From Myxococcota bacterium (GTDB taxonomy: Bacteria; Myxococcota; UBA4151), in the NCBI GenBank assembly GCA_036338695.1, contig JAYZBQ010000076.1:59625-123624 (forward strand): 64,000 nt of DNA, given 5' to 3'. The notes below the pieces were generated by a model. That model saw only the letters and a program-made list of their open reading frames with translations. It had not been told where the DNA came from and made no database searches. Made by a program: the position numbers and the translations under genes. Positions 3,429 to 36,368 of the stretch are shown here, piece after piece (the stretch's first letter is position 1; the number at the start of each line of letters is the position of its first letter).

Positions 3429-3700
3429 TGGACGGGGCGACGGTCTCAGTGGCGCTGAGTCAAATGGTTGACGTCTCGATGCAGGTGGCGGGACCCTACC
3501 TCCTCGTTGGGCTCGTCGTCGGGCTGATCATGAGCCTGTTTCAGGCGCTGACTCAGCTGCAGGAGCCTTCACTTGTTTTCGTTCCAAAGGTTCTAGCGAT
3601 CGTGGTGCTCATGGGGTTAATCGGCGCATGGACCAGCGACGTGATGGTGCGCTACACGGTCAATATGTTTGACCTGTTCGGCGCCACGCTCGCGCCCTGA
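3428..3700 (+). CDS. fliQ: Flagellar export protein FliQ
   Basis: FQALTQLQEPSLVFVPK motif, 90 aa. Confidence 0.95.
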   Translation: MDGATVSVALSQMVDVSMQVAGPYLLVGLVVGLIMSLFQALTQLQEPSLVFVPKVLAIVVLMGLIGAWTSDVMVRYTVNMFDLFGATLAP

Positions 3701-15279: not shown

Positions 15280-16007
15280 AAACCTCTCTGGCTGACCTTG
15301 CGGCGTACCAACAGGCGGCGCGCACGCAGCGCAACGCAAGCGATCAGCTGAAGGCGGGGGGCGTAGAGGCTGCGGCGAAAGCCTTTGAGGCGATGTTTAT
15401 CAAGATGCTCCTCGACGCCATGCCCGAGTCTGAAGACAGCGCCATCTCCGGCGGCTTCGGCGGCGGCGTCTGGCGCGATATGTTGCACCAAGAATACGCC
15501 TCGCAGGCCTCGAAACAAAAAGGTTTTGGGATCGCCGAGGCGATCGTCCGGCAGATGGGACCTCAAGCTCAGGTCACCCCCACCGAGCCCTTATCGCCGC
15601 TGGCAGGCGCGCTGCGCCGAACGAGCGCCTTTGGGCCGCGTGTGCACCCGATCACCGGTCAACACCACCACCACACCGGCGTCGATTACGCTGCGCCCAC
15701 GGGCACCCCGGTTCGTTCCATCCTGGACGCCGAGGTCGTTTTTGCCGGCCCCAAAGGGGGCTATGGCCAGCTGGTTGAGCTGCGTCACGCAGACGGTACG
15801 ACGACGCGCTACGCGCACCTTGATCGAATTGATGTCACCCTCGGGCAGCGTCTTGAGCGCGGTGAGCTGCTCGGAACGGTCGGCTCGACCGGTCAGAGCA
15901 CCGGACCTCACCTGCACTTTGAGGTGCGTCAAAACGGTCAAGCGATCGACCCAGAGCCCTACCTCAAGGCTCAGGCGAGCCAGCCCGTCGCGCGGCGCGG
16001 GCGCTGA
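15276..16007 (+). CDS. flgJ: FlgJ rod-binding domain fused to an M23 metallopeptidase
   Basis: AAKAFEAMFIKMLL..M and GIAEAIVRQM (rod-binding); HTGVD, YAHL, STGPHLHFEV (M23). Confidence 0.9.
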   Translation: MKTSLADLAAYQQAARTQRNASDQLKAGGVEAAAKAFEAMFIKMLLDAMPESEDSAISGGFGGGVWRDMLHQEYASQASKQKGFGIAEAIVRQMGPQAQVTPTEPLSPLAGALRRTSAFGPRVHPITGQHHHHTGVDYAAPTGTPVRSILDAEVVFAGPKGGYGQLVELRHADGTTTRYAHLDRIDVTLGQRLERGELLGTVGSTGQSTGPHLHFEVRQNGQAIDPEPYLKAQASQPVARRGR

Positions 16008-19930: not shown

Positions 19931-19958
19931 TAAACAGCTGACCTGATCGGGTCGTTGT
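19931..19958 (+). promoter_or_regulatory. Candidate sigma-28 promoter for the flagellin-1/fliD/fliS operon
   Basis: TAAA-N16-GTCGTTGT, same layout as the element at 16106. Confidence 0.55.
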
Positions 19959-19965
19959 CTGGGTC

Positions 19966-20009
19966 GGAGGGCAAGGATGCCTTCCAGGCGGACACGGATG
20001 TCCACGGAG
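19966..20009 (+). promoter_or_regulatory. CsrA-type GGA-loop hairpins in the flagellin-1 leader
   Basis: GGAGGGCA-AGGA-TGCCTTCC (19966-19985), GGACA-CGGA-TGTCC (19990-20003), then ACGGAG at the RBS. Confidence 0.8.
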
Positions 20010-20017
20010 CCAACCCA

Positions 20018-20848
20018 ATGTCTTTAGTCGTCCACCATAACGTGGCGGCGCGCTTTGCCCGCATGCACCTGGCTCGAGCCCAGGATGCCATTCAAGGTAG
20101 CACGGACCGGATGAGCTCGGGGTACCGACTCAATCGAGCGGCAGACGACACCACCGCCTTTGCGGTCTCCATGCGCTTCGGTTCGGACTTGATTGGCCTT
20201 GAGACCGTCAACCGCAACGCCCGCAACGGCATGAACCTGATCAGCGCCATGGAAGGGACGGCTGGTGAGATCCTGCGCGTCCTGGACCGGATGCGTGAGT
20301 TGGCGACGAAAAACGCAACGGAGACGATGACCGCGACGGATCGCAGCGAAGCTCAGATCGAGTTTGCGGCGCTTCAAGAAGAGATTCAGCGCTTGGCTCA
20401 GACCACGCAGATGAACCGAGTCCAAGGTCTGGCGGTTTCGGACACCATGACCTTCCAAGTCGGCGCCGGTGGCGGCGCCGCCAACCAGGTCGTGCTGTCG
20501 ATGCGCTCGATGACGCTTGCGGCGCTCTCGATCGGACCGGGCGACGCAGACATTATACTGATGAGCAACGCGCAGGGCGCGCTTGAGAGCATCGACGTCG
20601 CGCTTTCTCGCCTCAATACGCGCCGCTCGGAGATGGCGGCCACCTTCTCTCAGCTCAACTCCGCCTTTGACGTGACCGCAGCGGATCGCGAAGCGCTCCT
20701 CAATACATTAAACGTGATTCGTGATACCGATTACGCAGAGGAGTCGACGCGACTGGCGCAGAATCAGATCCGCTCGCAAGCTGCGGTGAGCATTCTGAGC
20801 CAGGCGAATACGATCCCGCAGCTGGCGCTGCAGCTGCTGCAAGGATAG
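20018..20848 (+). CDS. fliC: Flagellin 1 (short, divergent, 276 aa)
   Basis: MSSGYRLNRAADD, DRMRELA, TFQVG, IRDTDYAEE, SQANTIPQLALQLLQ; ATG 20018 follows the RBS. Confidence 0.88.
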   Translation: MSLVVHHNVAARFARMHLARAQDAIQGSTDRMSSGYRLNRAADDTTAFAVSMRFGSDLIGLETVNRNARNGMNLISAMEGTAGEILRVLDRMRELATKNATETMTATDRSEAQIEFAALQEEIQRLAQTTQMNRVQGLAVSDTMTFQVGAGGGAANQVVLSMRSMTLAALSIGPGDADIILMSNAQGALESIDVALSRLNTRRSEMAATFSQLNSAFDVTAADREALLNTLNVIRDTDYAEESTRLAQNQIRSQAAVSILSQANTIPQLALQLLQG

Positions 20849-20858
20849 GGAGGCGAAG

Positions 20859-22202
20859 ATGGCTGGATTTAGTGTAGGTGGATTGGCGACGGGGCTTGAT
20901 ACCAAGACCATGATCGCCCAACTCCTTCAGGTCGAGCGCTCGGCGCAGATCGGCCCTAAGCGTCGTAAGGCTGAGGCAGATCAGCGCGGCGCCGCCATCA
21001 ACGACCTGATCAACCTGATGAAAGAGGTCCGAACAGCCGCTGAGGGCGTCGACACCAACACCGAGGCTGCCGCCGTCACCGCCACCAGCGGCGACACCGA
21101 CAAGTTTACGGTAACGGGCGATGGCAACGCGCTCCCCGGCAGCTATCAGCTCGCCATCGGTCAGCTCGCCCAGGGGCAGAAGAATCGGGTGACCCTCGGC
21201 ACGAGCCTAACCGATTCTATCAACACCGGGACCTACACGATCCAAGTCGAGGGTGAGGACGCAGTCGATGTCGAGATCGACGGCACCAACGACACTTTGT
21301 CGGGGTTCATCACGGCGATCAACTCAGCCGAGGCAGGGGTGACAGCCTCCACCATCTTTGACGGCAACAACTACACCTTGGTGATCACCGCTGATGACAC
21401 CGGCAAGGCCGTCAACTACACCTCGAGTGGGGGCGCCAAGTGGAGCAACATCGACGGCAGCAAGGCGGACTTCTCAGTCTACCAAGAAGCCCAAGATGCC
21501 ATGTTTACGATCGATGGGATCGGGATCCAGAGCGACACCAACGAGGTGACCGACGCCATCACCGGGATCACGATCAACTTGCTGGAGACCACCGCCTTTG
21601 ACGAGATGGGGATGCCCACCGAAGAGATCAGCCTTGAGGTCAAAGCGGACAGTGAGAAGACCACAGAGAACGTCGAGGCGCTGACGGCGGCCATCGGCAA
21701 GGTCATGGCGAACCTTAAGTCGAACATGGCGTCCAGCGAGGACCGAGCCGGGATTCTCGCCTTTGACTCCACCGCCCGCATGCTGCGCGGCTCGATCTCC
21801 GATGCTTTGATCAATCGGCAAAGCGGCAACGACGGAACGTACAGCTCGCTGACGATGATCGGTATCGGGCAGGATCGCTATGGCAACATCTCCTTTGATA
21901 AGGATGAGTTCGCCGAGGCGCTCGCTAAGGATAAAGATGGCGTGCTGGGTCTGATTACGGGCGAGGACGGCCTCGCCGACCGGTTCAAAGAGATGGTTGA
22001 CGACTACACCTTCTCGGACGGTTTCCTGACGATCCGCAAAACCATGTACTCGGATCGCTCGAGCGATATCTCAAAGTCGATCGAGCGTATGGAGGAGCGC
22101 GTCATCGCTTACGGCGACCGGCTCAAGCGCCAGTTCGCTAAGCTCGAGCAGATGGTCTCAGGGCTCAATCAACAGAGCTCCGCATTGAGCGGTCTGCGCT
22201 AG
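20859..22202 (+). CDS. fliD: Flagellar filament cap protein FliD
   Basis: GLATGLDT..MI..LL, QLAQ, AQDA.FTIDG...SDTN.VTDAITGITINL, RLKRQFAKLE. Confidence 0.95.
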   Translation: MAGFSVGGLATGLDTKTMIAQLLQVERSAQIGPKRRKAEADQRGAAINDLINLMKEVRTAAEGVDTNTEAAAVTATSGDTDKFTVTGDGNALPGSYQLAIGQLAQGQKNRVTLGTSLTDSINTGTYTIQVEGEDAVDVEIDGTNDTLSGFITAINSAEAGVTASTIFDGNNYTLVITADDTGKAVNYTSSGGAKWSNIDGSKADFSVYQEAQDAMFTIDGIGIQSDTNEVTDAITGITINLLETTAFDEMGMPTEEISLEVKADSEKTTENVEALTAAIGKVMANLKSNMASSEDRAGILAFDSTARMLRGSISDALINRQSGNDGTYSSLTMIGIGQDRYGNISFDKDEFAEALAKDKDGVLGLITGEDGLADRFKEMVDDYTFSDGFLTIRKTMYSDRSSDISKSIERMEERVIAYGDRLKRQFAKLEQMVSGLNQQSSALSGLR

Positions 22203-22213
22203 GAAGGCACACC

Positions 22214-22618
22214 ATGATCCCCGCCAAACGGAACCCGTACGCCAGCGCTCAGGTCAACTCGGCAAGCCCGGAGCAGATCCTGGTGCTGCTGTATGACGCC
22301 GCTTTACGTGACCTCAAAGAGGCGATGGCGGCGCTGCAGGTGAACGATCGGTCGCGCAAGGCGAAGGCTTTGGATCATGCGGTCAAGGTGGTCACCGAGC
22401 TCGCGAACAGCCTGCGACCGGACAAGTCACCTGAGATCGCTGAGAACCTCTCGAGTTTGTATGATTTTATGATCGATCGGATGATTCGATCGAACGCTCA
22501 GAACCAAGACCTTGATCTGCAGGTCGTCTACAACTTGCTCGGCGAGCTGCGCTCAGCCTGGGTGGAGGCGATCCGGATCAACCGAACACAGCGAAACCAA
22601 GGGGTGGCAGGAGCCTAA
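22214..22618 (+). CDS. fliS: Flagellin chaperone FliS
   Basis: ASPEQILVLLYDAA, ENLSSLYDFM, ELRSAW. Confidence 0.96.
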   Translation: MIPAKRNPYASAQVNSASPEQILVLLYDAALRDLKEAMAALQVNDRSRKAKALDHAVKVVTELANSLRPDKSPEIAENLSSLYDFMIDRMIRSNAQNQDLDLQVVYNLLGELRSAWVEAIRINRTQRNQGVAGA

Positions 22619-22634
22619 CCCCAAGCACCCTACA

Positions 22635-22700
22635 CGCTGAGCAAGGATGCGAGGCGTTGACCCATCAAGGAGGATATCGGTCATGTTGAACAGCACATAG
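22635..22700 (+). other. Orphan flagellin-type leader: two GGA hairpins plus a 5-codon ORF (MLNST)
   Basis: GCA-AGGA-TGC (22641-22650); CCATCAAGGAGGATATC identical to the flagellin-3 RBS region; ATG TTG AAC AGC ACA TAG at 22683-22700. Confidence 0.55.
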
Positions 22701-22816
22701 GGGGCACCCCCCAGCGAGCCGAACCCAGCAAGGCTCACGACATAATCAGCTGGAAAAATAAATACTTTGAAACACCTGGGACGGCTCGAGCGAGCTCGAA
22801 CAGGGACCCTTTACCC

Positions 22817-22836
22817 GGAGCTCAGGGACGAGCTCC
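22817..22836 (+). promoter_or_regulatory. CsrA-type hairpin in the flagellin-2 leader
   Basis: Perfect 7-bp stem GGAGCTC-AGGGAC-GAGCTCC. Confidence 0.7.
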
Positions 22837-22895
22837 TTCCACTCGGCGGCGCTTCTTTCCAGAGCTCGCCGGCCATGCCAATCAAGGAGGATACC

Positions 22896-23723
22896 ATGGC
22901 CATCACTGTACGCAGTAACCCGCAATCCATTTTCTCGCAGACTCGCTTGACGCGCACCAGCCGCGCTCTTGAGAAGACGTTCAACCGTCTCTCGAGCGGC
23001 AGCCGCATCAACACGGCGGCCGATGACGCCGCAGGCTTAGCGATCTCGACTCGGCTCGAGCACCGCATCAAGGGGCAAGCCGCCGCCAAGCAAAACGCGC
23101 AAGAGGGGATCAGCTTTATCCAGACGCTCGAGGGCGGCGTGGAGCAGATCCTCGATATGTTGCATCGTCTGCGTGAGCTGGGTGTGCGCGCCGCTAACGA
23201 GACCCTGACCGACACTGATCGCGACGCCTTAGACCTTGAGTTTCAGCAGCTGCTGACCGAGGTGGACCGCGTCGGGTTGTCTACCTCGTTCAATGGTGGT
23301 CCGAACCTGCAAGGCTCTCTTGAGATGACCTTCCAGGTCGGCTTCTCAAACACCACCAACGACCGAGTCTCGCTGACTCAAACCTCTGGGCTTTCGCTCG
23401 CGGCGCTTCAGCTCAGCGGGCACGACGTGCAGTCGATCAGCAACGCTGCCAGCGCCATCGGTGACCTGAGCTTGGCGCTGAGCCACCTCAACGCGTACCG
23501 TTCGCGTCTGGGCGCCACGCAAAACCGCCTCGAGCGTTCCATCTCGAACCTTGAAGCCGATATCGAAAACGCAACGGCGGCCAACAGCCGCATCCGTGAC
23601 GTCGACTTCGCAGAGGAGACCAGCCAGCTGACCAGGCTCCAGATCTTGAGCCAGAGCGGAACCGCTGTGTTGACGCAGGCTAACGCCATGCCGCAGGCGG
23701 CGCTCGCCTTGCTCGGCGGCTGA
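22896..23723 (+). CDS. fliC: Flagellin 2 (275 aa)
   Basis: RLSSGSRINTAADDAAGLAIS, RSRLGATQNRLE, SRIRDVDFAEE; AAGGAGG RBS before ATG 22896. Confidence 0.95.
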   Translation: MAITVRSNPQSIFSQTRLTRTSRALEKTFNRLSSGSRINTAADDAAGLAISTRLEHRIKGQAAAKQNAQEGISFIQTLEGGVEQILDMLHRLRELGVRAANETLTDTDRDALDLEFQQLLTEVDRVGLSTSFNGGPNLQGSLEMTFQVGFSNTTNDRVSLTQTSGLSLAALQLSGHDVQSISNAASAIGDLSLALSHLNAYRSRLGATQNRLERSISNLEADIENATAANSRIRDVDFAEETSQLTRLQILSQSGTAVLTQANAMPQAALALLGG

Positions 23724-24118
23724 TCGGACGGCTGACTATGAACAAGATCACGATCGCCAATAGAGGCTCACCCGGGCGCGCGCCGCCCCCTCGACGCCGA
23801 GGTCGCAAGCGGAGCACCATCCGGTGGCTCTGGTCTCGGCGGCGAGGTCACCCGGTCATCCTGACCTGGGCTCGCTGCAAGACAAGGGCAGGACCCTTTA
23901 GCGGGCACATCAGGGCGCCGAACATGAGCGTTCGTAACGACATCCCCAGGGAGCTTGCCGATTCGGCGCACGCTCCGATCATCAGGAATCGTCATGGACC
24001 GTCTGAATCTCGGGCAGGGCCGACTCCCGGTCGCGCACCGCCCAAATCGACGGGCCCTCCTTAGCCGGAGGAGCTCCCGTCTGGGAGTCATCAGGAAGGA
24101 CAACAATTCAAATCAATC

Positions 24119-24134
24119 GGGACAAGGACGTCCC
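24119..24134 (+). promoter_or_regulatory. CsrA-type hairpin in the flagellin-3 leader
   Basis: GGGAC-AAGGAC-GTCCC. Confidence 0.65.
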
Positions 24135-24187
24135 ATTCGCCGGCTGGCGACCCAGGTCACCAGCCACTAGCCATCAAGGAGGATATC

Positions 24188-25021
24188 ATGGCTATTGTAG
24201 TAAGAAGTAATCCGCAGTCGGTCTTTGCACAGGTCCGTCTGAATCGTAGCTCGAACGCCTTACAAGACACCTTTCAGAAGTTGTCGACGGGCTCTCGGAT
24301 CAACAACGCTGGTGACGACGCCGCTGGGCTCGCTATCTCGACGCTGCTCGAGCACCGGATCCGCGGTCAAGGCGCGGCGAAGCAGAACGCGCTCGAAGGC
24401 ATCAGCATGATCCAGACCGCCGAAGGGGGCGTGGAGCAGGTTCGCTCGATGCTCGACCGGATGCGAGAGCTGGCGGTTCGCTCAGGCAACGAGACGCTCA
24501 GCGCCTCGGATCGTTCGAACGCGGACTTGGAGTTTCAGCAGCTCAAGCAAGAGATCACGCGTATCGGCAACACGACCTCGTACAACGGCGTCAACCTGCT
24601 TAATGCGTCACAGACGCTGACGTTCCAGGTCGGCTTTGCCAACACCACGAACAATCAGATCGCGGTGAGCTTGACCGGTAACATGATCGCATCAGGCGCT
24701 GACAGCTTCCTGTCGCTGAGCGGTGACGTCGGTAGCGCGGCTGCTGCAGCGTCGATGTTGGCTAAGATCGACAGCGCGCTGAGTCGGCTCAATGGTTATC
24801 GATCGAAGCTCGGCTCGGTGCAGAACCGGCTCGAGCGAGCGATCTCGAACCTCGAGGCCGACATCGAGAACGCAACGGCGTCGAATAGCCGGATTCGGGA
24901 CGTGGACTTTGCAGAGGAGACATCGAAGATGACGCGTCTGCAGATCCTTGTCCAAAGTGGCACGGCCGTGCTGACGCAGGCCAACGCCAGCCCACAAGCG
25001 GCGCTCTCCCTGCTCGGGTAG
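24188..25021 (+). CDS. fliC: Flagellin 3 (277 aa)
   Basis: KLSTGSRINNAGDDAAGLAIS, QTAEG, LGSVQNRLE, SRIRDVDFAEE. Confidence 0.96.
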   Translation: MAIVVRSNPQSVFAQVRLNRSSNALQDTFQKLSTGSRINNAGDDAAGLAISTLLEHRIRGQGAAKQNALEGISMIQTAEGGVEQVRSMLDRMRELAVRSGNETLSASDRSNADLEFQQLKQEITRIGNTTSYNGVNLLNASQTLTFQVGFANTTNNQIAVSLTGNMIASGADSFLSLSGDVGSAAAAASMLAKIDSALSRLNGYRSKLGSVQNRLERAISNLEADIENATASNSRIRDVDFAEETSKMTRLQILVQSGTAVLTQANASPQAALSLLG

Positions 25022-25044
25022 CGCAGCACGCGGGATCAGCCAGG

Positions 25045-25085
25045 AGGGTGCTCGGGGGTTACCTCGAGCACCCTTTTGGTTTTTT
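25045..25085 (+). terminator. Rho-independent terminator after flagellin 3
   Basis: AGGGTGCTCGGGG-GTTA-CCTCGAGCACCCT stem followed by TTTGGTTTTTT. Confidence 0.85.
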
Positions 25086-25332
25086 AAATTTACAGCAAAT
25101 CAAATGGCTTAGCGTTGCATCGGCTCAAAATGGCCGTGTTTTTAGGGCGTTGCCTTGACTTTGTTCATTCATGCCCCCACACTCTCAATGAAGGTCCACC
25201 TGTCCCCGGGCGACTTAGGAGGTAGTTTTAACATCATGGTTCCGCGCTGGCGAGCGCCGAATCAAGCCGGGCACACGCACCCGTTGAGCTTCAGCCCTTG
25301 GACCCTTGAAGCACAGCAAAACCATACAGAAC

Positions 25333-25353
25333 GCTCTCAAAGGATATGAGAGC
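25333..25353 (+). promoter_or_regulatory. CsrA-type hairpin in the flagellin-4 leader
   Basis: Perfect 7-bp stem GCTCTCA-AAGGATA-TGAGAGC, just before the AAGGAGG RBS. Confidence 0.75.
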
Positions 25354-25374
25354 TAAGCCATCCAAGGAGGAATC

Positions 25375-26208
25375 ATGGCACTTGTAGTACGTAGTAACGT
25401 TCAGTCTGTCTTCGCTCAAAACCGCCTCAACAGAAGCCAGGCGACCTTCGAAGACTCCCTCGCAAAACTTGCCTCGGGTAGCCGCATCAATAAAGCGGCT
25501 GATGATGCTGCTGGTATGGCGGTCTCGACCACTCTTGAGCACCGCATCAAAGCGCAGTCGGCTGCAAAGCAGAACGCTCAGGAAGCGATCAGTATGATCC
25601 AGACCGCAGAAGGCGGCGTGGAGCAGGTGCGCGGTATGATCGACCGTATGCGTGAACTCGCCGTGCGTGCGAGCAACGAAACGCTCAGCGCATCGGATCG
25701 CACGAATGCGAACCTCGAGTTCACTCAGCTTCAAGCGGAGATCAACCGCATCGGCAACACGACGTCGTACAACGGCACGGACTTGCTGGCAGCGACCGCA
25801 GAGCTGACCTTCCAGGTCGGCATGGAAAACAGCGCCAACCAGCGGATCATGGTGACCATGACCGGTAACATGCTGGCGACTGGCACTTCGGCTGCGCTGG
25901 CGCTGACCGGCGGCGTCGACACGACGGCGGGTGCGACGTCGATGCTTGCCAAGATCGACGCGGCGCTGAGCACCCTGAATGGGTACCGCTCGAAGCTCGG
26001 TTCGGTCCAAAACCGCCTGGAGCGATCGATCTCGAACATCGAGGCAGACATCGAGAACGCCACCGCAGCGAACAGCCGGATCCGTGACGTCGATTTTGCG
26101 TCCGAAACGGCGAACTTCACTCGGTCTCAGATCCTTATTCAGTCGGGTACGGCGATTTTGGCTCAGGCGAACAGCTCGCCGCAGGCTGCGCTGTCCCTGC
26201 TGGGTTAG
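25375..26208 (+). CDS. fliC: Flagellin 4 (277 aa)
   Basis: KLASGSRINKAADDAAG, QTAEG, LGSVQNRLE, SRIRDVDFASE. Confidence 0.96.
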   Translation: MALVVRSNVQSVFAQNRLNRSQATFEDSLAKLASGSRINKAADDAAGMAVSTTLEHRIKAQSAAKQNAQEAISMIQTAEGGVEQVRGMIDRMRELAVRASNETLSASDRTNANLEFTQLQAEINRIGNTTSYNGTDLLAATAELTFQVGMENSANQRIMVTMTGNMLATGTSAALALTGGVDTTAGATSMLAKIDAALSTLNGYRSKLGSVQNRLERSISNIEADIENATAANSRIRDVDFASETANFTRSQILIQSGTAILAQANSSPQAALSLLG

Positions 26209-27042: not shown

Positions 27043-29475
27043 GTGTCGATAGATGAAGTGGAGGTCCCCATGGAAGTCTACTTCGACCAGCAACTGATCG
27101 GCGAGACGGCGAGCGGCTCGTCGCTCACCTCCCTCATCGGGGGCGACCGGCTTGAGCTGACGGTTTGCACGCGCGTCGACGGCGTTGATGATACCCTCGA
27201 CGCGGTTTTGGCGCAGAGCAACTTGACCGGGAAGCGCCTCGATCTCTTCAGCTTTGATGGTTGGCTTGCCGAGTCGGCATCGCTGGTGACGGAGTTGATT
27301 GAGCGGATTGGTCAGAGCAGTACGGTCATCGCCGGTATGACCAGCCAGCGTGATCCGGTGGAATTGCTCGATGAGCTGATGCTCAAGCCGAAAGAGATCC
27401 TCAGCGAACTCGAAGGGGTCGCCGAACATCTTGGTCCAGAGCTGTCCGCAGCGATCGATGAGTTAAAACTCCTGAGCGTCGCTGCTGAGTCGGTTCTAGT
27501 AGCCGCTGTTCGCGACAAGGATTTCATCCGGGTCGCCGACGCGTTACGACTTGAGTGGAGCATCTTTTTGCGTGGGCTCGTCAGCTTTCTTGAGCCCGAG
27601 GTTGCCTTCGAGATACCTGCTGCTGAGCCCAGCTCTGGACTCTCACCCGAGGCACTGTATGCGCTTAATCTTGAGGCGCTTGAGGAGCGCTTTCCTCTTT
27701 TGTGCTCACCCTTGAAGGCGGCTTGGGAAGAGCGTGACGAAGAGCGTTATCGTTTTGAGGAGGGACCATCAGGGTTGCGCGCGCCGCGCATCAACAATCA
27801 GCGGATGTGGTCGGTGATGACCCCCTTGGCTGATGCTGAGCACATCGCCGCAGAGCATCGAGGCGATGCGAAGTATGCGGTATGGGATTGTGCGGTCTCA
27901 TGGGGGCTCTCGGGCGAGTTAGCGCATCAGATTTTAGCGGGTGAGATGGAGGGACGACCACAGATTTTTGTTCGACCTGACCTTCAAGCTTTTGCCGCTG
28001 AGCTGCACTGCTGTGACTGGCGACCCCTACTCGAGGCGGATCACACGATTCTGTGCACGACGGTGAGCGACTACCGCTGGACGCTCCGGAACTGCTTTGT
28101 ACACAATGACCGGATTCGTCGTTTGAGCAGTCCGAATCTTCTCGCGGTCGACCCTGAGCTGTACGTAGAGCTCCACGAACAGAGCGGACATACGGAACTC
28201 TCCTTGATCATGGAGGATTTTACCGGGATCAGTCGCGGGCGCGGTTGGGTCATCAATGAGCTTCAGAACGTCGCTGTGCTGCTTGACCAGCCCGACGCTC
28301 GCGAGCTTAAAGATATGCGTAAAGGCATGCCGGGTCTGCTGGTCGCTCCGGGACCCAGCCTGAAGAAGAATCTGCATTTGATCCCTGAGTTCGCTAAAAA
28401 AGGCGTGGTGGTCGGGGTCAGCCATGTTTTGGGTAAGTTGCAAGATATGGGCGTGGATCCCGAGCTGACGGTCGCTATTGAAGGGTATGACATCTCGAAT
28501 CACTTTGAAAACAGCGACCCGACGCGTACCTCCCTGTTCTTGCACGAGTCTACAAACCCCAACGTCGTCAATCTGCCGGTCGCACAGCGCTGGGTGGTGC
28601 ACGATGGCGGCATCGGCGCACGGCTGCGCCCGGACGAGAATCTTCGCTCCGTCAACATGGTCGCGTCGAGCTGTACGCACGTGGTCATGTGGGCGCTCAA
28701 GGAGCTCGGCTGCGACCCCATCGTCTTTGTGGGCCTGGACCTCGCGCTTGAGGACGGGCGCCAATACGCCGACGGCTGTGAGGGCACGACACCCACACAG
28801 CAAACCCTCGAGGTCGACGGATACTTTGGCGAAAAGGTTCAGACCTTATCGCAGTACAACGTCTTTCGCGACCAGTTCGAGCTCTGTATCTCGCATCCGC
28901 TCTTCTCGGACCGGCGTTACATCAACGCCACCGAGGGCGGAGCGCGCATTGACGGAACCGATCAGATGTCGCTCGCTGAGGTTATCGAGTCGCTCGCAGA
29001 GCGCCCGGATAAAGAATTGCATGGACCCCTCGTCGCTGAAGAGCATCAGCTGCCGTCCATCGATTGGTCGCTCGCCGCGCAAACGATCGAGACCAGCGCA
29101 TCGGACCTCGAAGAAGCCGAGGCGAGCGCACGTCGCGGATTGAAATCCGCTAAAGAGGCGATCACCTGCTTTAAAGCTGGCGATGAAGCGGGCGTCTCGC
29201 GCCGAGGGCGAGCCGCCTCCAAGCGAGCCAAGCGCGCCAACGAGGTGCTGACCCACGATCACATCCTCAACGGGCGCTGGATGGCTGAACAAAACAAGCG
29301 CTCTCAGCGCCTCGAGCGTGAGGTCCGCTACCTCGGCGACGACCCCAAGGCAGTGATGCGCCATAACCTCAACCACTATCAGCAGCTCCTCGCCTCCATC
29401 GAAGAGGCGACGCGCAGCTTGCGACCGCATTATGAAGAGGCGGCGAAACGAATCCGGGAGCGGCACAATGTTTGA
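27043..29475 (+). CDS. Motility-associated factor (Maf/DUF115) flagellin glycosyltransferase with an extra N-terminal domain
   Basis: LLVAPGPSLKKNL, LGCDPIVFVGLDLA, YINATEGGARIDG; lies between flagellins and pseB. Confidence 0.85.
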   Translation: MSIDEVEVPMEVYFDQQLIGETASGSSLTSLIGGDRLELTVCTRVDGVDDTLDAVLAQSNLTGKRLDLFSFDGWLAESASLVTELIERIGQSSTVIAGMTSQRDPVELLDELMLKPKEILSELEGVAEHLGPELSAAIDELKLLSVAAESVLVAAVRDKDFIRVADALRLEWSIFLRGLVSFLEPEVAFEIPAAEPSSGLSPEALYALNLEALEERFPLLCSPLKAAWEERDEERYRFEEGPSGLRAPRINNQRMWSVMTPLADAEHIAAEHRGDAKYAVWDCAVSWGLSGELAHQILAGEMEGRPQIFVRPDLQAFAAELHCCDWRPLLEADHTILCTTVSDYRWTLRNCFVHNDRIRRLSSPNLLAVDPELYVELHEQSGHTELSLIMEDFTGISRGRGWVINELQNVAVLLDQPDARELKDMRKGMPGLLVAPGPSLKKNLHLIPEFAKKGVVVGVSHVLGKLQDMGVDPELTVAIEGYDISNHFENSDPTRTSLFLHESTNPNVVNLPVAQRWVVHDGGIGARLRPDENLRSVNMVASSCTHVVMWALKELGCDPIVFVGLDLALEDGRQYADGCEGTTPTQQTLEVDGYFGEKVQTLSQYNVFRDQFELCISHPLFSDRRYINATEGGARIDGTDQMSLAEVIESLAERPDKELHGPLVAEEHQLPSIDWSLAAQTIETSASDLEEAEASARRGLKSAKEAITCFKAGDEAGVSRRGRAASKRAKRANEVLTHDHILNGRWMAEQNKRSQRLEREVRYLGDDPKAVMRHNLNHYQQLLASIEEATRSLRPHYEEAAKRIRERHNV

Positions 29476-30436
29476 CCAGGCTTCACTGCTCATCACAGGC
29501 GGAACGGGTAGCCTAGGGAACGCGCTGACCCGCTATCTACTCGACCACACGAATTTGCGCCGCGTGATCATCTACAGTCGCGACGAGCTCAAGCAGCATG
29601 AGATGCGCCAGCGCTTCGGCAACGACCCAAGATTACGGTTTTTTATCGGCAACGTGCGCGACTTAGATCGGCTCCGACGCGCTTTTACAGGGGTTGATTA
29701 CGTCATCCATGCGGCGGCGCTCAAGCAGGTCCCAGCCGCTGAATACAACCCTTTTGAGTGCATCAAGACCAACGTTTTGGGTGGGCAGAACGTGATCGAG
29801 GCGGCGCTCGACTGTGGCGTCAAGAAGTTGGTCGCTCTATCGACGGACAAAGCGTGCAATCCCATCAATTTGTACGGCGCGACCAAGCTGTGCTCCGATA
29901 AGCTTTTTGTCGCGGGTAACGCCTACGCAGGCGGTTCGGGCACCCAGTTTGCGGTGGTCCGCTACGGCAACGTCTCGGGCTCGCGCGGCTCGGTGGTTCC
30001 CTTGTTCAAACGATTCGCTGAGACGGGCGGCGAGGTCACCATCACCGATGAGCGGATGACGCGCTTTTGGATCACCATCGAAACGGCGGTTCAGCTGGTG
30101 ATGGACAGCTTTGAGCACATGGTCGGCGGGGAAATCTTTGTGCCCAAGATCCCCTCTATGCGGGTTGTGGATCTGGCACAGGCGCTGTGCCCTGGGCAGC
30201 CAATTCGGGTCATCGGGATTCGCCCGGGCGAGAAGCTGCACGAGGCGATGATCGGCGAAGACGACAGCCGCTCGGTGATCGATATGGGCGCCCGCTACGC
30301 GATCTTGCCGGAATTTGAGTGGTACAATGCGCGCCGGGATCGAGGCACGCCGGTGCCCGACGGGTTTAGCTACACCTCGGATCGCAACGAGGACTGGCTG
30401 ACGGTCGAGCAGCTCAAGGAGTTGTCGGCGCGATGA
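29468..30436 (+). CDS. pseB: UDP-N-acetylglucosamine 4,6-dehydratase (inverting)
   Basis: ITGGTGS, SRDELKQ, HAAALKQVPAAEYNPFECIKTN, LSTDKA..PINLYGATKL. Confidence 0.95.
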   Translation: MFDQASLLITGGTGSLGNALTRYLLDHTNLRRVIIYSRDELKQHEMRQRFGNDPRLRFFIGNVRDLDRLRRAFTGVDYVIHAAALKQVPAAEYNPFECIKTNVLGGQNVIEAALDCGVKKLVALSTDKACNPINLYGATKLCSDKLFVAGNAYAGGSGTQFAVVRYGNVSGSRGSVVPLFKRFAETGGEVTITDERMTRFWITIETAVQLVMDSFEHMVGGEIFVPKIPSMRVVDLAQALCPGQPIRVIGIRPGEKLHEAMIGEDDSRSVIDMGARYAILPEFEWYNARRDRGTPVPDGFSYTSDRNEDWLTVEQLKELSAR

Positions 30437-31563
30437 TCCCTTATGGACGGCATGAGCTTAGACCCGAAGACCGCGACGCAGTGCTGCGCGTCTTGGAGTC
30501 CGGTTGGCTGACCGGCGGACCGGCGGTGCAGGAATTTGAGGCGGCGCTGTCGAGCGTCTGCCAGGCGCCGCATGTCGTGAGTTGCTCGAACGGAACCACG
30601 GCGCTGCATCTGATCGCTGAGGCCATCGCGGCGCCCCCAGGCGCCTGGTGGATCTGTACGCCGAGCACCTTCGTCGCAAGCATTCAGGCAGGTATCTACG
30701 CAGGCTATCGCCCCGTTTTTGTCGACGCGGACCCGCAGACCGGACTGATCGATCTCGAGTCGTTGCGCGGCTTGCTCGAGGCGGCACGCGATCATCAGGC
30801 GGTGGTCGCTGCCGTGGTCGCTGTGGACCTGAACGGTCACTGCGTACCGCTCGAGGACCTCGTCGATTTGCTGGATATCTACGCCGTGCCCATCGTGCGA
30901 GACGCTGCGCACAGCTTGGGCGCTTTGGACGCCGGCGGGATACCGGTCGGCGGGAGCGATCGGGTGCTGGCGACGGCGCTGAGCTTTCATCCGGTCAAGC
31001 TGATCGCTGCAGCAGAGGGCGGCGCCATCGTCGGGCACGATGACGAGTTCATGGCGCGACTGCGCCACCTAAGGAGTCACGCGATGGTGCGCCAGCCTGG
31101 AACACCGAGTGATTATCGCGTCGACGCCGTCGGGTATAATTATCGCCTCTCTGACCTTCACGCCGCGCTCGGGCAGAGCCAACTGGCCAGGATCGATGAA
31201 AAGCTGGCGCGCCGGCGCGCGCTGGCGCGCCAGTATCAAACATTGCTCGCCGATGTGGACGGGGTGGAGGTCGTGTCACCATCACCTCAGACCCAGTCGG
31301 CGTGGCACCTGATGAGTGTCCTCGTCGACCCTGAGCGTCGCTGGCAGCTGATCGCTAGCTTGCGTGCGAAAGGCGTAGGCGCAGCCCATCATTACCCGGC
31401 TGCGCACCTTCAGCCGGTGTATCAAGAGTTGCTGCCAGGGTTGGAGGGTACCTGCCCTGGCGCCGAGCGTTACTGTGCGTCTCAGGTGACGTTGCCGCTC
31501 TTTGAAGAGCTGACCGAAGAACAGGTGACCGAGGTCACTGACACGCTCAAAGCGCTCCTATAA
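30433..31563 (+). CDS. pseC: DegT-family sugar aminotransferase, PseC-like
   Basis: MIPYGR, SNGTTALH, DAAHSLG, SFHPVK, GYNYRLSD; follows pseB. Confidence 0.88.
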   Translation: MIPYGRHELRPEDRDAVLRVLESGWLTGGPAVQEFEAALSSVCQAPHVVSCSNGTTALHLIAEAIAAPPGAWWICTPSTFVASIQAGIYAGYRPVFVDADPQTGLIDLESLRGLLEAARDHQAVVAAVVAVDLNGHCVPLEDLVDLLDIYAVPIVRDAAHSLGALDAGGIPVGGSDRVLATALSFHPVKLIAAAEGGAIVGHDDEFMARLRHLRSHAMVRQPGTPSDYRVDAVGYNYRLSDLHAALGQSQLARIDEKLARRRALARQYQTLLADVDGVEVVSPSPQTQSAWHLMSVLVDPERRWQLIASLRAKGVGAAHHYPAAHLQPVYQELLPGLEGTCPGAERYCASQVTLPLFEELTEEQVTEVTDTLKALL

Positions 31564-31649
31564 GCAACGCATTCGAAACGGTAAATTCGACTTTTTAGGG
31601 TTGTAAGCGGTGCGTGCATGAGTCAATCCTTCGGGCGGAGCCTTTTGAG

Positions 31650-32531
31650 ATGAGCAACCCAGTCTTGCAAGTTGGTGATCGTGTCGTGATCGTCCCTCGC
31701 TCGGGCAGCATGGCAAGCGTGCAAATCTCAGGGCGCGTCCTCGCCGCAAAGGGGACCGACGCGGTACGCATCGCCTGGGACCTCGACGGCCGAAACCCCT
31801 TTGAAAAGGGTGACGAGTTTTTGGTGATCGGGCGCGACATGCGCCGCCGCGGCACGTTCATGAGTGGTGACGTCAGCAGCGCCAATCTGGTGCTGCGTGA
31901 AGCCGCAGGAGACGGGCGCTCGAACCGGCGCTTCGCGCGGGTCGAGAGCATGCTTAAGTTTTCGTGGCGCGGGCTGAACCCCGGTGAGGTGGAAGCGCTC
32001 GAGTTTAAAGTGCGCGACGCCGTCGGTTTACGCCAAGGCTTGAGCGCAGAGAACGTGGCCGCGCCGAAGACGCAGCTCGGCGATTACCTCGAGAAGCGCC
32101 TGAGTGTGCTTGAAGAGCTCATGAGGCGTATCCTCGAGCGGCTTGAGGTGAATGACCCCGCCAGCGCCGAGTTGACCGAAGGGCTCTGTGATCTGAGCGG
32201 CTCAGGCATGGTGTTTCCCGTTGATCACGGGCACTATCGCGTAGCGGTGGCGTTTACGGCGATCAGCCCGGTCGATCAGGAGTCGATCGTCCGCTACAAC
32301 TTTCACGTCGAGCGCTCTCGGCGCCGGAAGGCGGTTGAGGGGGAGGGTCAGCACACCGAGTTTAGCGGTGAGATGCCGGCGTTGACGCTCGCTCAGAAAA
32401 AGGATCTGGCACTCTGCCCCGTGCAAGTGGGTGACTTTGTCGAGATCTCGCTGACGCTCCCGCTTGAGGTCCCAGCGGAGATTCGCGTGGTGGCGCGCGT
32501 CGTTCGCTTGGAATCCGGCGAACGCAGCTAA
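31650..32531 (+). CDS. PilZ-domain c-di-GMP effector with a rearranged C-terminal barrel
   Basis: RRFAR (RxxxR) and DLSGSG (DxSxxG) motifs; ATG 31650 follows GGAG. Confidence 0.75.
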   Translation: MSNPVLQVGDRVVIVPRSGSMASVQISGRVLAAKGTDAVRIAWDLDGRNPFEKGDEFLVIGRDMRRRGTFMSGDVSSANLVLREAAGDGRSNRRFARVESMLKFSWRGLNPGEVEALEFKVRDAVGLRQGLSAENVAAPKTQLGDYLEKRLSVLEELMRRILERLEVNDPASAELTEGLCDLSGSGMVFPVDHGHYRVAVAFTAISPVDQESIVRYNFHVERSRRRKAVEGEGQHTEFSGEMPALTLAQKKDLALCPVQVGDFVEISLTLPLEVPAEIRVVARVVRLESGERS

Positions 32532-32553
32532 CTGACCTAGAGAAGATCAGGTT

Positions 32554-32958
32554 ATGAAATTAGATCATCTGGGCATTGCGGTGCCCAACCTAGAGGAGGC
32601 GCTCGCGTTTTGGCGTGACGCGCTCGGGCTCGAGTTGACCGACGTTGAGGTCGTTGAGTCCGAAGGCGTTCGAACCGCCTTCTTGCCGGTCGGTGACGCC
32701 AGCATCGAGCTGCTTGAGCCGATGGACGACTCAGGGGTGATCGCTCGGCATATTGAGCGGCGTGGACCGGGGATTCATCACATCTGCATGAAGGTTGATG
32801 GTCTCGAGGGGCATCTTGACCGCTTGGATCGACAAGATGTCCGCTTGGTGGATCGCCAGCCGCGCCCAGGCGCCCATGGTAAAAAGGTTGCTTTTATCCA
32901 TCCAAAGTCTGCAGGGGGTGTCCTCGTGGAACTGGCGGAGCCTGGAGACGAGGCATGA
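32554..32958 (+). CDS. mce: Methylmalonyl-CoA epimerase
   Basis: DHLGIAV, IELLEP, GPGIHHIC, FIHPKSAGGVLVEL. Confidence 0.93.
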   Translation: MKLDHLGIAVPNLEEALAFWRDALGLELTDVEVVESEGVRTAFLPVGDASIELLEPMDDSGVIARHIERRGPGIHHICMKVDGLEGHLDRLDRQDVRLVDRQPRPGAHGKKVAFIHPKSAGGVLVELAEPGDEA

Positions 32959-34967
32959 AGCGTTTGATGATGTTGTTCGTGGCGGTCGGGGCCTCTCCCG
33001 CGGTCGCTCAAGAAGCCCAGGCGCCGGCGGAGGCTTCCGCCGAGGCGCCCGCCCAAAGCGCAGCCTCTGGAGAGGCGCCCGCCCCTGCAGAGCCCGAGGC
33101 ATCTCAAGAAGAGTCGCCCAAGGAAGCGGTCGAGTCCGACGCCAAGACCCAGCCGCCAGTCGCCGTCGGTTCGGGTGTCGACGTGGAGCGCTTGAAGTCG
33201 CAGCTCAAGCTCGAGCTGCTCGAAGAGCTCTCTGCGGGGCGCAGCCAGGGCGCAGGTGTGCCGGCTGATTGGGAGGAGAAGACGCTCAAGGAAGAGATCA
33301 AGCCGGCGCTGAGGACCTTTGAGGTGAACGGCTACTTCCGGACCCGTATGGACTACATGCGCAACCTGGACCTCGGCACGGCTCAGTTCAACCGGACGCG
33401 TGGGGGCTGGGATGGCTCATCCAATGTCCCGCCGGCGCTCTTTTGGGACGGTGAAGGTGCGTCCGAGTTGTCCTCGGCGAACATGCGCTTGCGGCTCGAC
33501 CCGACGCTCAACTTGAGCGAGACGGTCCAGGTCCACAGCCGAATCGATGTCTTTGACAACGTGATGCTCGGCGCCACGCCGGATTCGTTCCCAGGGTTGA
33601 TTGACAATCCGTCGTCACCGCTGTCGCTGTTCTCAGCCTCCGCGAGCGCGCCTCAGGCCGGCGTCAACGGCCCATGGAGCAGCCTTGTGGTCAAGCGAGT
33701 CTACGGCGACGTGCTGTTGCCGGTCGGGCGCCTTCGCTTCGGCCGGATGGGCTCGAACTTTGGCTTAGGGGTGCTCTCCAACGGCGGCGACGGAGACCAA
33801 GACGACGCGGGAGACAACGCGGATCGAATCATGTTCTTGACCAAGCTGAGCGGTCACATCGTGGGGCTTGGTTGGGATTTTGCTGCCGAAGGCCCGTTTG
33901 GCGCCGGCGGGGGCAACGGCGCATCGCAGCCGTATCGAGCCGGCGAGGGTCGCCAGTTCTATGACTTGGCGCAGCGTGACGACGTGGATCAGTACGTGGC
34001 GGTCGTCGCCAAGGCGGACCGCGGCGAGGCGATGACTCGTCTCTTGGCCGAGGGCAAAACCAGCACGAATTACGGCGCCTACGTGGTGTATCGAAGCCAA
34101 GCTTATGACTTCCCGACGGAGTGGTACGGCAGCCGCTACAACGGCTCGTTCCCCGGACAGGATCCGACGCAGGATGGCGGCAACGCCCCGCGGGGCGCGC
34201 TGCGGCGTGACGCCCAGGCGACCATCGCCAGCCTCTGGTTTCGGCAGCAAAACAACCGCTATCGTGTGGAGGCTGAAGCCGTCACCATTCAGGGGATGGT
34301 CGGGTCGTTCGCAACCAAGGCGGAAGACGTCGGCAACCCAGCGGTCGAGGACATCGAGATCTCTCAGCTCGGCGCTGCGCTTGAGACTGAGTACAAGCTC
34401 GCGAAGGACAAGCTCGTTGTCGGGCTCGATGCAGGCTACGCCAGCGGCGATGACTATCCTCGGTGGGGGCTGCGGCCTGGCACGGGACAGGTTGCGGCAG
34501 GGGACCGGGAAACGGGCGACACGCGTCAGTTCGGCTGCCCGGTCGGCACCGAGACCAACACCGCCAACCCCTGCTCGGCGGCGCTCGATAAGAACATCAC
34601 CAACTTCCGCTTTGATCCCTCCTACCGCGTGGATCAGATCCTGTTTCGCGAGGTCATCGGTGGGATCACCGACGCGTGGTACGTCAAGCCGCACCTCGCC
34701 TATGCGCTCAACCCAGCCTCCAAGCTCAAGGCAGCGGCGATTTATGGTCAGGCGGTTCACGCCCAGAGCACCCCGGGCGGAGAGACGCCGCTGGGGCTCG
34801 AGTTTGACCTCGGCTTGGACATCAAGCTCAAAAACCGGCTGGGCTTCGCCCTGGATTACGGCCTGCTCTTCCCCTTGGCGGGGTTGAACTACAAGGTCGC
34901 TCAAGGGAGCACCGTCGAGGCGGGCATGGCGCAGCGGGTGATGGGCACCCTGATGCTCCGCTTCTAG
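32955..34967 (+). CDS. TIGR04551-like outer-membrane beta-barrel protein
   Basis: Signal peptide, NGYFRTR, ANMRLRLDP.LN.SE, LRFGRMGS..GLG, NFRF.P.YRVD.ILFRE, C-terminal RF; family recalled, not searched. Confidence 0.75.
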   Translation: MKRLMMLFVAVGASPAVAQEAQAPAEASAEAPAQSAASGEAPAPAEPEASQEESPKEAVESDAKTQPPVAVGSGVDVERLKSQLKLELLEELSAGRSQGAGVPADWEEKTLKEEIKPALRTFEVNGYFRTRMDYMRNLDLGTAQFNRTRGGWDGSSNVPPALFWDGEGASELSSANMRLRLDPTLNLSETVQVHSRIDVFDNVMLGATPDSFPGLIDNPSSPLSLFSASASAPQAGVNGPWSSLVVKRVYGDVLLPVGRLRFGRMGSNFGLGVLSNGGDGDQDDAGDNADRIMFLTKLSGHIVGLGWDFAAEGPFGAGGGNGASQPYRAGEGRQFYDLAQRDDVDQYVAVVAKADRGEAMTRLLAEGKTSTNYGAYVVYRSQAYDFPTEWYGSRYNGSFPGQDPTQDGGNAPRGALRRDAQATIASLWFRQQNNRYRVEAEAVTIQGMVGSFATKAEDVGNPAVEDIEISQLGAALETEYKLAKDKLVVGLDAGYASGDDYPRWGLRPGTGQVAAGDRETGDTRQFGCPVGTETNTANPCSAALDKNITNFRFDPSYRVDQILFREVIGGITDAWYVKPHLAYALNPASKLKAAAIYGQAVHAQSTPGGETPLGLEFDLGLDIKLKNRLGFALDYGLLFPLAGLNYKVAQGSTVEAGMAQRVMGTLMLRF

Positions 34968-34982
34968 TCGAGGGCGTCCTCG

Positions 34983-36368
34983 TTGAGTCAGTACAGCTGG
35001 GGTGGTCGCTTCTCGGAAGGTATGGACGCGCTGGTGGCGCGGTTCAACGCATCGGTTCGGTTTGACCAGCGACTCGCTATGCACGACCTGCGCGGCTCGC
35101 AGGCGCACGCTCGGATGCTCTGCACCCAAGGCTTGATCTCAGAGGCTGAGTTCGCCGCCATCGACGAGGGCCTGCAGACGATCAAGGGGCGCATCGAGCG
35201 CGGCGACTTCGCCTGGAGCGATGCGCTCGAAGATGTGCACATGAACATCGAGGCGGAGCTCGTCGAGACCATCGGCGCCGCCGGCAAGAAGCTCCACACC
35301 GCACGCTCGAGGAACGACCAAGTCGCAACCGATATGCGCTTGTGGGTCAACGAGGCTGGCGCCGAGTTGGTCTCGGCGCTCGTCGCCTTGCGCTCCGCCC
35401 TGATCGAGCAGGCGCGGCAGCAGCAGGATACCATCCTGCCGGGATACACCCACCTGCAGCGGGCGCAACCGGTCCGCCTTAGCCACCACCTGCTCGCACA
35501 CGAAGCACACCTAGCGCGTGACACCGAGCGGATCATCGATGCGGTCAAGCGGCAGAACCTGTCGCCGCTGGGAAGCGGCGCGCTCGCCGGGACACCGCAC
35601 CCGATCGATCGCCAGCAGGTCGCTGACGCGCTCGGGTTTGACGGCGTCACGGTCAACAGCCTCGACGCGGTCGGCGCACGCGATCACATGCTCGAGCTGC
35701 TCGCCGCCTGCGCCATCGCCCAGATCGGGCTCAGCCGCCTCGCCCAGGAGCTGGTGCTTTGGTCGAGCCAGGAGTTTGCGTTCTGTACGCTCTCGGATGC
35801 GTACTGCACCGGCTCCTCGATGATGCCGCAGAAGAAAAACCCCGACATGCCGGAGCTGGTGCGCGGGAAGGCGGGGCGCGTGCTCGGTGATTTCGTGACG
35901 CTCGCGACCGTGGTCAAGGGGTTGCCCTTAGCCTATAACAAGGACCTCCAAGAGGACAAAGAGCCGCTCTTTGACGCGGTCGATACTCTGCGCGATTGCG
36001 CCACCGTGATGACCGGTACGATTGCCACCGCAGTGTTTCACGCTGACACCATGGAGCAGGCGCTGCGTGAGGGCTTTGTCGAGGCGACGGAGCTAGCCGA
36101 TGTTCTGGTTGAGCAGGGGGTCGCCTTTCGTGAGGCGCATCATCGCGTCGGCGACTTGGTCGGTGAGCTCGCCAGCGCCGGGCAGCGACTGATCGATGCG
36201 AGCGATGAGCAGCTCGAGCGGCACCTGAAGATCACCTCAACCTTGGTCCGAGGCCGGCTCGACCTCGACGCGATGATCGAGCGTCGTCAGCAGCCGGGTA
36301 GCCCGGCGCGCCGGTTTGTTCTTGAGGCGATCGAGGCCGCGGGTAAGCGGCTGGATACGCTGTCGTGA
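34983..36368 (+). CDS. argH: Argininosuccinate lyase
   Basis: WGGRF, EDVHMNIE, HTARSRNDQ, GSSMMPQKKNPD, YNKDLQEDKE. Confidence 0.97.
   Translation: MSQYSWGGRFSEGMDALVARFNASVRFDQRLAMHDLRGSQAHARMLCTQGLISEAEFAAIDEGLQTIKGRIERGDFAWSDALEDVHMNIEAELVETIGAAGKKLHTARSRNDQVATDMRLWVNEAGAELVSALVALRSALIEQARQQQDTILPGYTHLQRAQPVRLSHHLLAHEAHLARDTERIIDAVKRQNLSPLGSGALAGTPHPIDRQQVADALGFDGVTVNSLDAVGARDHMLELLAACAIAQIGLSRLAQELVLWSSQEFAFCTLSDAYCTGSSMMPQKKNPDMPELVRGKAGRVLGDFVTLATVVKGLPLAYNKDLQEDKEPLFDAVDTLRDCATVMTGTIATAVFHADTMEQALREGFVEATELADVLVEQGVAFREAHHRVGDLVGELASAGQRLIDASDEQLERHLKITSTLVRGRLDLDAMIERRQQPGSPARRFVLEAIEAAGKRLDTLS

Follow-up and report, generated by a model that had tools for sequence, protein, structure and literature searches.

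Can a PilZ domain carry the strands of its barrel in another order and still be the same domain? The question is raised by a gene at 31650..32531 of a 64,000-nucleotide stretch (hereafter the window) of contig JAYZBQ010000076.1 from a Myxococcota bacterium (assembly GCA_036338695.1, positions 59,625 to 123,624); the gene and all its features lie on the forward strand. It encodes 293 residues in a single open frame with the stop codon at 32529-32531, its ATG fits the starts of the homologues and a conserved GGAG, and the alternative would be a GTG in the same frame at 31614. A preliminary description had read it as a PilZ domain in which DLSGSGMVF (32190) runs directly into HYRVAVAFTAISPVDQESIVRY (32232), while the missing hairpin VQVGDFVEISLTLPLEVPAEIRVVARVVR (32421) appears last, and the three peptides were found at these positions in the same frame. 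The protein joins a PilZN-like barrel to a tPilZ-type domain that is internally permuted, and the swap of strand blocks inside that fusion is family-wide, under selection and non-circular.

Three blocks describe the rearranged domain: block A (residues 88-192) with the RxxxR motif, β1, a helical insert and β2-β3 with DLSGSG; block C (residues 193-230) with β6 and a long helix; and block B (residues 257-289), the β4-β5 hairpin. The canonical order is A-B-C, whereas here it is A-C-B, that is, β1-β2-β3-β6-helix-linker-β4-β5. Strands β2-β3 (32175..32222, with the DhSxxG motif DLSGSG at 32190-32207) lead into a new short connection from β3 to β6 (32223..32234) at the place of the β4-β5 hairpin of canonical relatives, seen as a jump from 113 to 155 in the profile match and as a gap in the profile-profile alignment; PVDHG forms the short turn between DLSGSGMVF and HYRVAVAFTAISPVDQESIVRY. 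Strand β6 and the arginine-rich helix α4, normally C-terminal, follow at residues 196-230 (32235..32339; profile 155-191, 28-37 bits). The linker (residues 231-256, 32340..32417) counts 26 residues from the modelled end of the helix (residue 230) to P257 or 35 if counted from R226, which makes the approximately 35 residues of the earlier account a fair figure, and its length varies from 22 to 27 residues across the family proteins. The relocated hairpin (32418..32516) closes the protein.

The order was assessed with a canonical-order hidden Markov model (HMM) built from 14 relatives, the fragments P0028, P0033 and P0037 being left out of the alignment (A2). The 15 family proteins were all matched as three pieces (profile positions of about 6-113, 155-191 and 117-151). 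Between them these pieces cover the canonical domain, and they stand in the order A-C-B in each of the 15 clusters. The 14 relatives had been selected with the family profile, which inflates the scores and leaves the order unaffected. The moved hairpin scored 13.2-26.5 bits, against a maximum of 9.7 bits in 2000 shuffles of the protein. The Pfam PilZ family (PF07238), which is independent of the choice of relatives, matched only block B (residues 257-290 to model positions 43-75 of 102, E 0.0014), with 19.4-19.6 bits and thus below its curated cut-off of 22.5; it matched 12 of the 15 members at E values up to 1, the best being 0.00054. Instead of the PF07238 order of β1 to β6 and a C-terminal helix, the 15 proteins have β1-β2-β3-β6-helix-β4-β5. 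A profile search of 1.84 billion representatives gave 24 matches, comprising one full member, five fragments, one spurious match (the repeat protein P0021, dropped) and 17 distant canonical PilZ proteins. On these 17 the family profile placed B before C in 14 and matched A and C with a gap of 30-45 residues in three, C before B being found in none, and 16 of them passed the PF07238 cut-off as one stretch.

That the order is an artefact of assembly is extremely improbable, since contigs of independent DNA runs from other studies cross both junctions and the same order recurs across two genera and in 15 clusters whose identity goes down to 50%. Both junctions were bridged in three of the four runs by one contig each (X4, 31500-32651; X7, 32142-32800; X12, 31945-32798), with no joint or indel listed, and the contig of the fourth run (X6) begins at 32238 and crosses the second junction only. 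The stretch is present once in its genome, in identical form, and a repeat search found none flanking the swapped blocks. Contigs from two of four RNA runs also bridge the β3-β6 junction in the order of the window, with different end points (32337, 32387 and 32402) and none extending over the C-terminal hairpin; a gap of this kind carries no weight, and the contigs are not evidence of transcription. The swap of strand blocks is therefore confirmed as real, and the natural permutation proposed in the preliminary description, which had asked for reads over the swapped region and for homologues with the same segment order, is supported by the cross-junction contigs, the three-piece HMM order, the family-wide occurrence, the structural models and the intact motifs.

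Block A keeps its leading position, which makes the swap non-circular at the level of the domain; only over the last ~75 residues does it amount to a circular permutation. Non-circular permutations of proteins are called rarer than circular ones (PMC10085705). The capsid protein of BPP-1 compared with the HK97 fold (PMC3863775) and the DNA methyltransferases (PMC10085705) are comparable in that two neighbouring blocks have changed places while the N-terminal block stays put and the three-dimensional fold is retained, as is modelled here. The BPP-1 protein has no recognisable sequence similarity to its canonical relatives, which obscures its origin (PMC3863775), whereas the blocks of the present family still align by sequence. 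A full-text literature search, which did not reach most subscription papers and some supplements, found no description of a permuted PilZ domain. PilZN fused to PilZ with helical inserts has already been published for Myxococcota and Deltaproteobacteria (PMC11800159); the permutation is not mentioned in the available text and two supplements of that paper, nor are the three GenBank accessions of the family present there. A review of PilZ diversity describes inserts, fusions and motif loss within a fixed strand order in its available part (10.1101/814665). The locus is a rare natural rewiring of a textbook domain, confined to one narrow uncultured lineage, with no new chemistry and a predicted function. 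With the event restricted to one family and the blocks alignable, the two topologies lend themselves to a direct comparison of folding, ligand affinity and signalling. Receptors that score below the Pfam cut-off and carry the label "hypothetical protein", as do the records of this family, may be missed by censuses of receptors for cyclic diguanylate (c-di-GMP).

The 15 clusters (at 90% identity) came from a protein search, in which members were 51-100% identical over 94-100% of the length and colinear end to end. The gene was found in the six genomes searched from one Myxococcota family (f1, with two genera, g1 and g2) and in none of 395 other genomes of the phylum, a sample in which some are incomplete. 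In one of the six (G002) it is split over two contigs, the second of which shows C before B. Most relatives are labelled Myxococcota or Myxococcales in the named records, and the runs containing the stretch are marine, seawater or salt marsh wherever labelled. A record titled Candidatus Hydrogenedens (CACGMS010000009.1) carries a gene that is 90% identical and fully syntenic with the Myxococcota locus, and its title is probably wrong. In a tree of segment A with 29 rows, a branch with support 86/95 (not starred) separates the 15 permuted rows from the others, the outgroup branches being long, with no sister group nameable. The swap likely arose once, in the ancestor of the family. NCBIfam has no family for the protein, the family profile, run against the sequences of the PDB, met with chance matches only (best E 0.22), and an Atlas search with the homologue P0015 gave PilZ and tPilZ clusters at 0.82-0.87, under the 0.9 line and a lead only.

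Both c-di-GMP motifs had been reported intact, which holds for the whole family: RRFAR (RxxxR; residues 93-97, 31926..31940) is present in the 15 proteins, as is DLSGSG or DLSGNG ([D/N]hSxxG). The ratio of nonsynonymous to synonymous differences per site (pN/pS; six loci, pooled and uncorrected, with pS near saturation) was 0.149 for B, 0.162 for A, 0.075 for C, 0.130 for the N-terminal domain and 0.116 for the linker, which is conserved in part, by which the moved hairpin is under purifying selection. Mean identity across the 15 proteins was 0.76 in C, 0.63 in B and 0.42 in the linker, so that block C, which holds α4, is the most conserved one.

The segments quoted in the preliminary description stand, but its anatomy overlooked two parts, an N-terminal barrel and a helical insert between β1 and β2, and by the models and structural matches the protein is a fusion of PilZN and tPilZ-type parts and not a plain PilZ domain. 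The first 87 residues (31650..31910) are modelled as a six-stranded PilZN/xPilZ-like barrel without c-di-GMP motifs or a terminal helix, nearest to 2L1T, the N-terminal domain of GSU3033 (PilZN1; Z 9.9, root mean square deviation (rmsd) 2.6, 87 residues aligned), and also matching PA0012 (Z 9.2). The Pfam families PilZN, PilZNR and PilZN1 had no match in the 15 family proteins. The model of the whole protein is nearest to MotI, VCA0042, PP4397 and MrkH, with two rows at E below 0.001.

The insert follows β1 (residues 98-109, 31941..31976, in both the model and the profile match). It is helical and 60-70 residues long, falls within the profile match 6-113, and in the model it has the tPilZ form of about 60 residues with two helices, α2 (residues 111-129) and, after a loop, the heptad helix α3 (residues 143-166; insert at 31980..32147). 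Two helices between β1 and β2 are the hallmark of tPilZ (10.1101/814665). In α3, positions 147, 151, 154, 158 and 161 are hydrophobic in the 15 proteins and position 165 in 13, and the heptad register is the one of α3 in XCC6012, with E148/R150/L151 corresponding to D75/K77/L78 (PMC3131395). The protein thus shares the two-helix insert, the α3 heptad and the arginine-rich α4 with tetrameric PilZ (tPilZ) proteins (XCC6012, 3PH1/3RQA; PA2989; Campylobacter FlgX), and it is the only full tPilZ-type match in each genome of the family. It differs in being fused to an N-terminal barrel, in keeping both c-di-GMP motifs, unlike XCC6012 and FlgX, and in its topology, β1-α2-α3-β2-β3-β6-α4-β4-β5 against the published β1-α2-α3-β2-β3-β4-β5-β6-α4, so that the canonical strand order with a C-terminal α4 is absent. 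Two results weigh against the tPilZ assignment: the interlock motif [DENH]x[KR]h[DEN] is complete in only two of the 15 proteins (EKRLS in the window protein), and Pfam tPilZ (PF16823) matches none of them, a scan of the gene's own genome with this family also not recovering the gene. Dropping the interlock motif as a tPilZ criterion has been argued for in PMC11725899.

With the YcgR-like proteins (YcgR, MotI/DgrA, VCA0042/PlzD, PP4397/FlgZ, MrkH, GSU3033) the window protein shares a motif-less N-terminal barrel, an RxxxR in the interdomain linker and, at the C-terminus, a PilZ domain. This domain is not the canonical one, owing to the insert and the permutation, and the partner-binding helix is internal instead of terminal. 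The YcgR-like clusters of Myxococcota and Deltaproteobacteria represented by MBI4594913.1 and MCA9504126.1 have a similar layout, with PilZN and PilZ, one to three helices between β1 and β2 and motifs often kept (PMC11800159), and five of the relatives found here (P0023, P0025, P0031, P0035 and P0036) are PilZN-PilZ proteins with a helical insert in canonical order. The canonical PilZN-tPilZ-type cluster P0023 has a 25-residue insertion exactly between β3 and β4, by which this loop tolerates rewiring. One member of this cluster is named "RNA binding exosome subunit" by its source, probably wrongly. A stand-alone tPilZ-type gene in canonical order with a weakened RxxxR region (G106, L099:8351-8899) was found in another flagellin-bearing family of Myxococcota.

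The explanation proposed here for the whole protein, at a probability of roughly 55%, is the following. A PilZN-like barrel is fused to a tPilZ-type domain with β4-β5 at the C-terminus and not between β3 and β6, and by prediction a single chain suffices to close the usual six-stranded barrel. According to the models, β3 very probably turns straight into β6, and the 26-residue linker returns the chain from α4 to β4. From the conserved motifs, c-di-GMP would probably bind between RxxxR and DLSGSG, and from the heptads a tetramer through α3 seems fairly likely. The signal would pass to the flagellar motor through α4. In the PilZ barrel, β3 and β6 are neighbouring antiparallel strands, which allows them to be linked by a short turn. 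The genome has four GGDEF matches and four other PilZ genes over the cut-off. The tPilZ protein PA2989 binds c-di-GMP at 188 nM (PMC11725899).

The AlphaFold model of the C-domain alone has a predicted local distance difference test score (pLDDT) of 75 overall and a predicted template modelling score (pTM) of 0.64, with pLDDT of 89-95 in the blocks with β1, β2-β3, β6, α4, β4 and β5 and below 50 in the α2-α3 loop and in the linker (residues 231-250). The case against a permuted barrel, a normal barrel formed without the C-terminal segment, did not occur, as in the model the C-terminal hairpin is part of the barrel. Foldseek ranked 3PH1/3RQA first, though weakly (E 0.0065), and they also led in the wide structure search. 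In that search, 11 PilZ-type chains were among the top 50, and ten of them align from the start of the model to the C-terminal hairpin. Six of the ten were also matched by the N-terminal barrel, and for five of these the C-domain alignment ends 10-16 residues short of the end of the chain's barrel: the alignments end at YcgR 205, 4I86 76, 4P00 665, 9FMV 768, 3KYF 208 and 4RT0 93, and the barrels at 216 (YcgR, from 5Y6G), 92, 680, 784, 224 and 103, respectively. In contrast, 5Y6G aligns to model residues 4-144, and its alignment includes the terminal helix and extends to chain residue 242. Escherichia coli YcgR is thus matched by both routes, 5y6f 113-205 with A+B and 5y6g 112-242 with A+C, as expected of an order-bound aligner if both blocks occupy their canonical places; the routes were read from alignment end points and lengths (67-77 residues; 126 for 3PH1). 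Several points count against this reading of the fold. Foldseek gave no E below 0.001 for the C-domain. In the wide search the Z values of 3.6-5.4 lie in the range that its tool regards as unspecific and interleave with helical noise, and the rmsd is 2.9-4.1 (6.2 for 3PH1). The aligners gave first and last residues only, with an order-bound superposition. The models were built on just 15-20 close sequences, and PilZ structures from the training of the predictor may be echoed in them.

Two other arrangements of the hairpin were considered. In a domain-swapped oligomer, each C-terminal hairpin would complete the barrel of a neighbour through the flexible linker and so lock the tetramer; the 22-27 residues of the linker and its low pLDDT would permit this, the α3 heptads would keep the subunits close, and part of the linker is conserved (by the pN/pS given above). 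Nevertheless, the single-chain models put the hairpin confidently in its own barrel, and the linker differs in length and sequence between the genera (with the low mean identity noted above), which leaves the swap improbable. Alternatively, β4-β5 could have been lost, with a working four-stranded remnant and a C-terminal hairpin that either is a mere appendage or lies against the N-terminal barrel. The resemblance of the N-terminus (LQVGDRVVI) to the start of the hairpin (VQVGDFVEI), in protein and in DNA (repeat D5), might be read in this way, although two PilZ-type barrels would also be expected to show it. This arrangement is very improbable: the hairpin is present in all 15 proteins under a constraint like that of the rest of the protein, it retains the strand VARVVR and can be superposed on PilZ chains of solved structure, and the N-terminal barrel is already six-stranded. 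The barrel closed by its own chain remains the preferred arrangement.

As to the origin of the swap, a partial 3' duplication, after which the first hairpin and the second β6-helix were lost, would give the order A-C-B, and it predicts remnants in the linker; the odds between this route and a cut-and-paste event are judged even. Tandem duplication of a whole gene explains circular but not non-circular permutation, for which rearrangement below the level of the gene has been proposed (PMC10085705). An h[ST]G motif lies at one aligned place of the linker in 12 of the 15 proteins (EFSG, EFTG, HFSG or HVSG; EFSG at 32358-32369 in the window), with VDLS in two more, and may be a relic of a duplicated DLSG. 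From this motif to the G position of block B there are 17 residues in g2 and 23 in g1, compared with 16 in 11 of the 17 canonical relatives. The pattern [DEN][LIVF]SG occurs in 0.7% of random 30-mers, in a test made post hoc on sequences that are kin. For 11 of the proteins, 1-5% of random 35-mers attain the five-column score of the relic, and for the other four 14-43% do. The serine codon class is the same in motif and putative relic in each genus (AGY/AGY at six loci, TCN/TCN at two), a weak sign given that AGY makes up 41% of the serine codons. The decayed DLSG-like motif weakly suggests partial duplication. Telling against it, the ten-column score is significant in none of the 15 proteins, and a duplication intermediate was absent from the profile search of 1.84 billion representatives, word-based searches (~160-550 residues) and a metagenome scan, which also found no remote or independent permuted PilZ. 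[quoted passage not shown] If true, it would offer a traceable route to a class of rearrangement whose origin is usually obscure.

The gene is the last of a same-strand run that begins with motA-motB-motB-fliL and continues with fliM, flhA, fliA, flg genes, flagellins, a maf-type gene, pseB and a pseC-like gene, several of these names resting on the reading of translations; motA itself sits on this contig and strand, 2.4 kb ahead of the window. The order flagellin-flaG-maf-pseB-pseC-gene is kept in g1 and g2, as is the downstream order. Flagellin was found in the six genomes of the family, with five to seven flagellin-domain matches each. The preliminary description had the gene closing the flagellar cluster, perhaps as a motor brake. 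Its place at the end of the run agrees with this, while its own upstream element and, in one genus, an overlap with a metabolic gene do not; the description as a whole thus stands as to the natural permutation and the intact motifs, and not as to a plain PilZ domain, with a mixed result for cluster membership. The tPilZ protein FlgX binds MotA through α4 (PMC11725899), and a flagellar gene lies near 3433 of 11,980 YcgR-like loci (PMC11800159). By position and architecture, the chances that the protein acts on stator or rotor, as do YcgR, MotI or FlgX, are about equal either way, and regulation of the motor is, at about even odds, the likeliest single role.

Other features of the locus speak against a flagellar role. 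The 86-nt gap upstream of the gene has its own conserved element (31595-31628), in g1 GGGTTG[AT]AA followed by a GCATGAGTCA-type imperfect palindrome and in g2 a looser version, which may be a promoter or operator of the gene, although it fits neither scanned consensus. A sigma-28 consensus pattern had no match between 25.5 and 37 kb, a sigma-70 match was absent in 29000-35200, and in g2 the gene overlaps the start of mce (methylmalonyl-CoA epimerase) by GTGA. In addition, a flagellin domain was matched at an E of 1e-15 or lower in 129 of 401 Myxococcota genomes searched, from many families, and the 123 outside the family lack the gene at the search sensitivity used. The same permuted c-di-GMP receptor could have a non-flagellar target and head the run mce-TIGR04551-argH-dapA-dapB-folK. 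The conserved upstream element, the gap of 22 nt to mce in the window or the GTGA overlap in g2, the downstream order conserved in both genera and the lack of a sigma-28-like site near the gene are in keeping with this. Nonetheless, none of 21 mce loci outside the family, three of which retain mce-TIGR04551, has a PilZ-like open reading frame within 1.5 kb, which means that the gene is not an old member of the mce cluster, and its architecture fits MotI/YcgR; a non-flagellar target is considered rather unlikely, and motor regulation is retained. Three other matches in the phylum whose neighbourhoods were examined have no flagellar genes nearby, except for a pseB-like gene 2.7 kb from the stand-alone tPilZ gene of G106.

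Further peculiarities were seen in the flagellar run. Just before the window (L102:12183-14877), one motA is followed by two motB-like genes and fliL, and the permuted PilZ effector and this unusual stator, lying in one cluster, may be linked. In the flg operon (15276-16007 of the window), a FlgJ-like N-terminal domain is fused to an M23 peptidase domain. At 19955-26208, four short flagellin genes (~275-280 residues) surround fliD and are followed by flaG, a FliT-like gene, an 810-residue Maf-type gene, pseB and the pseC-like gene, which likely constitute a flagellin glycosylation module.
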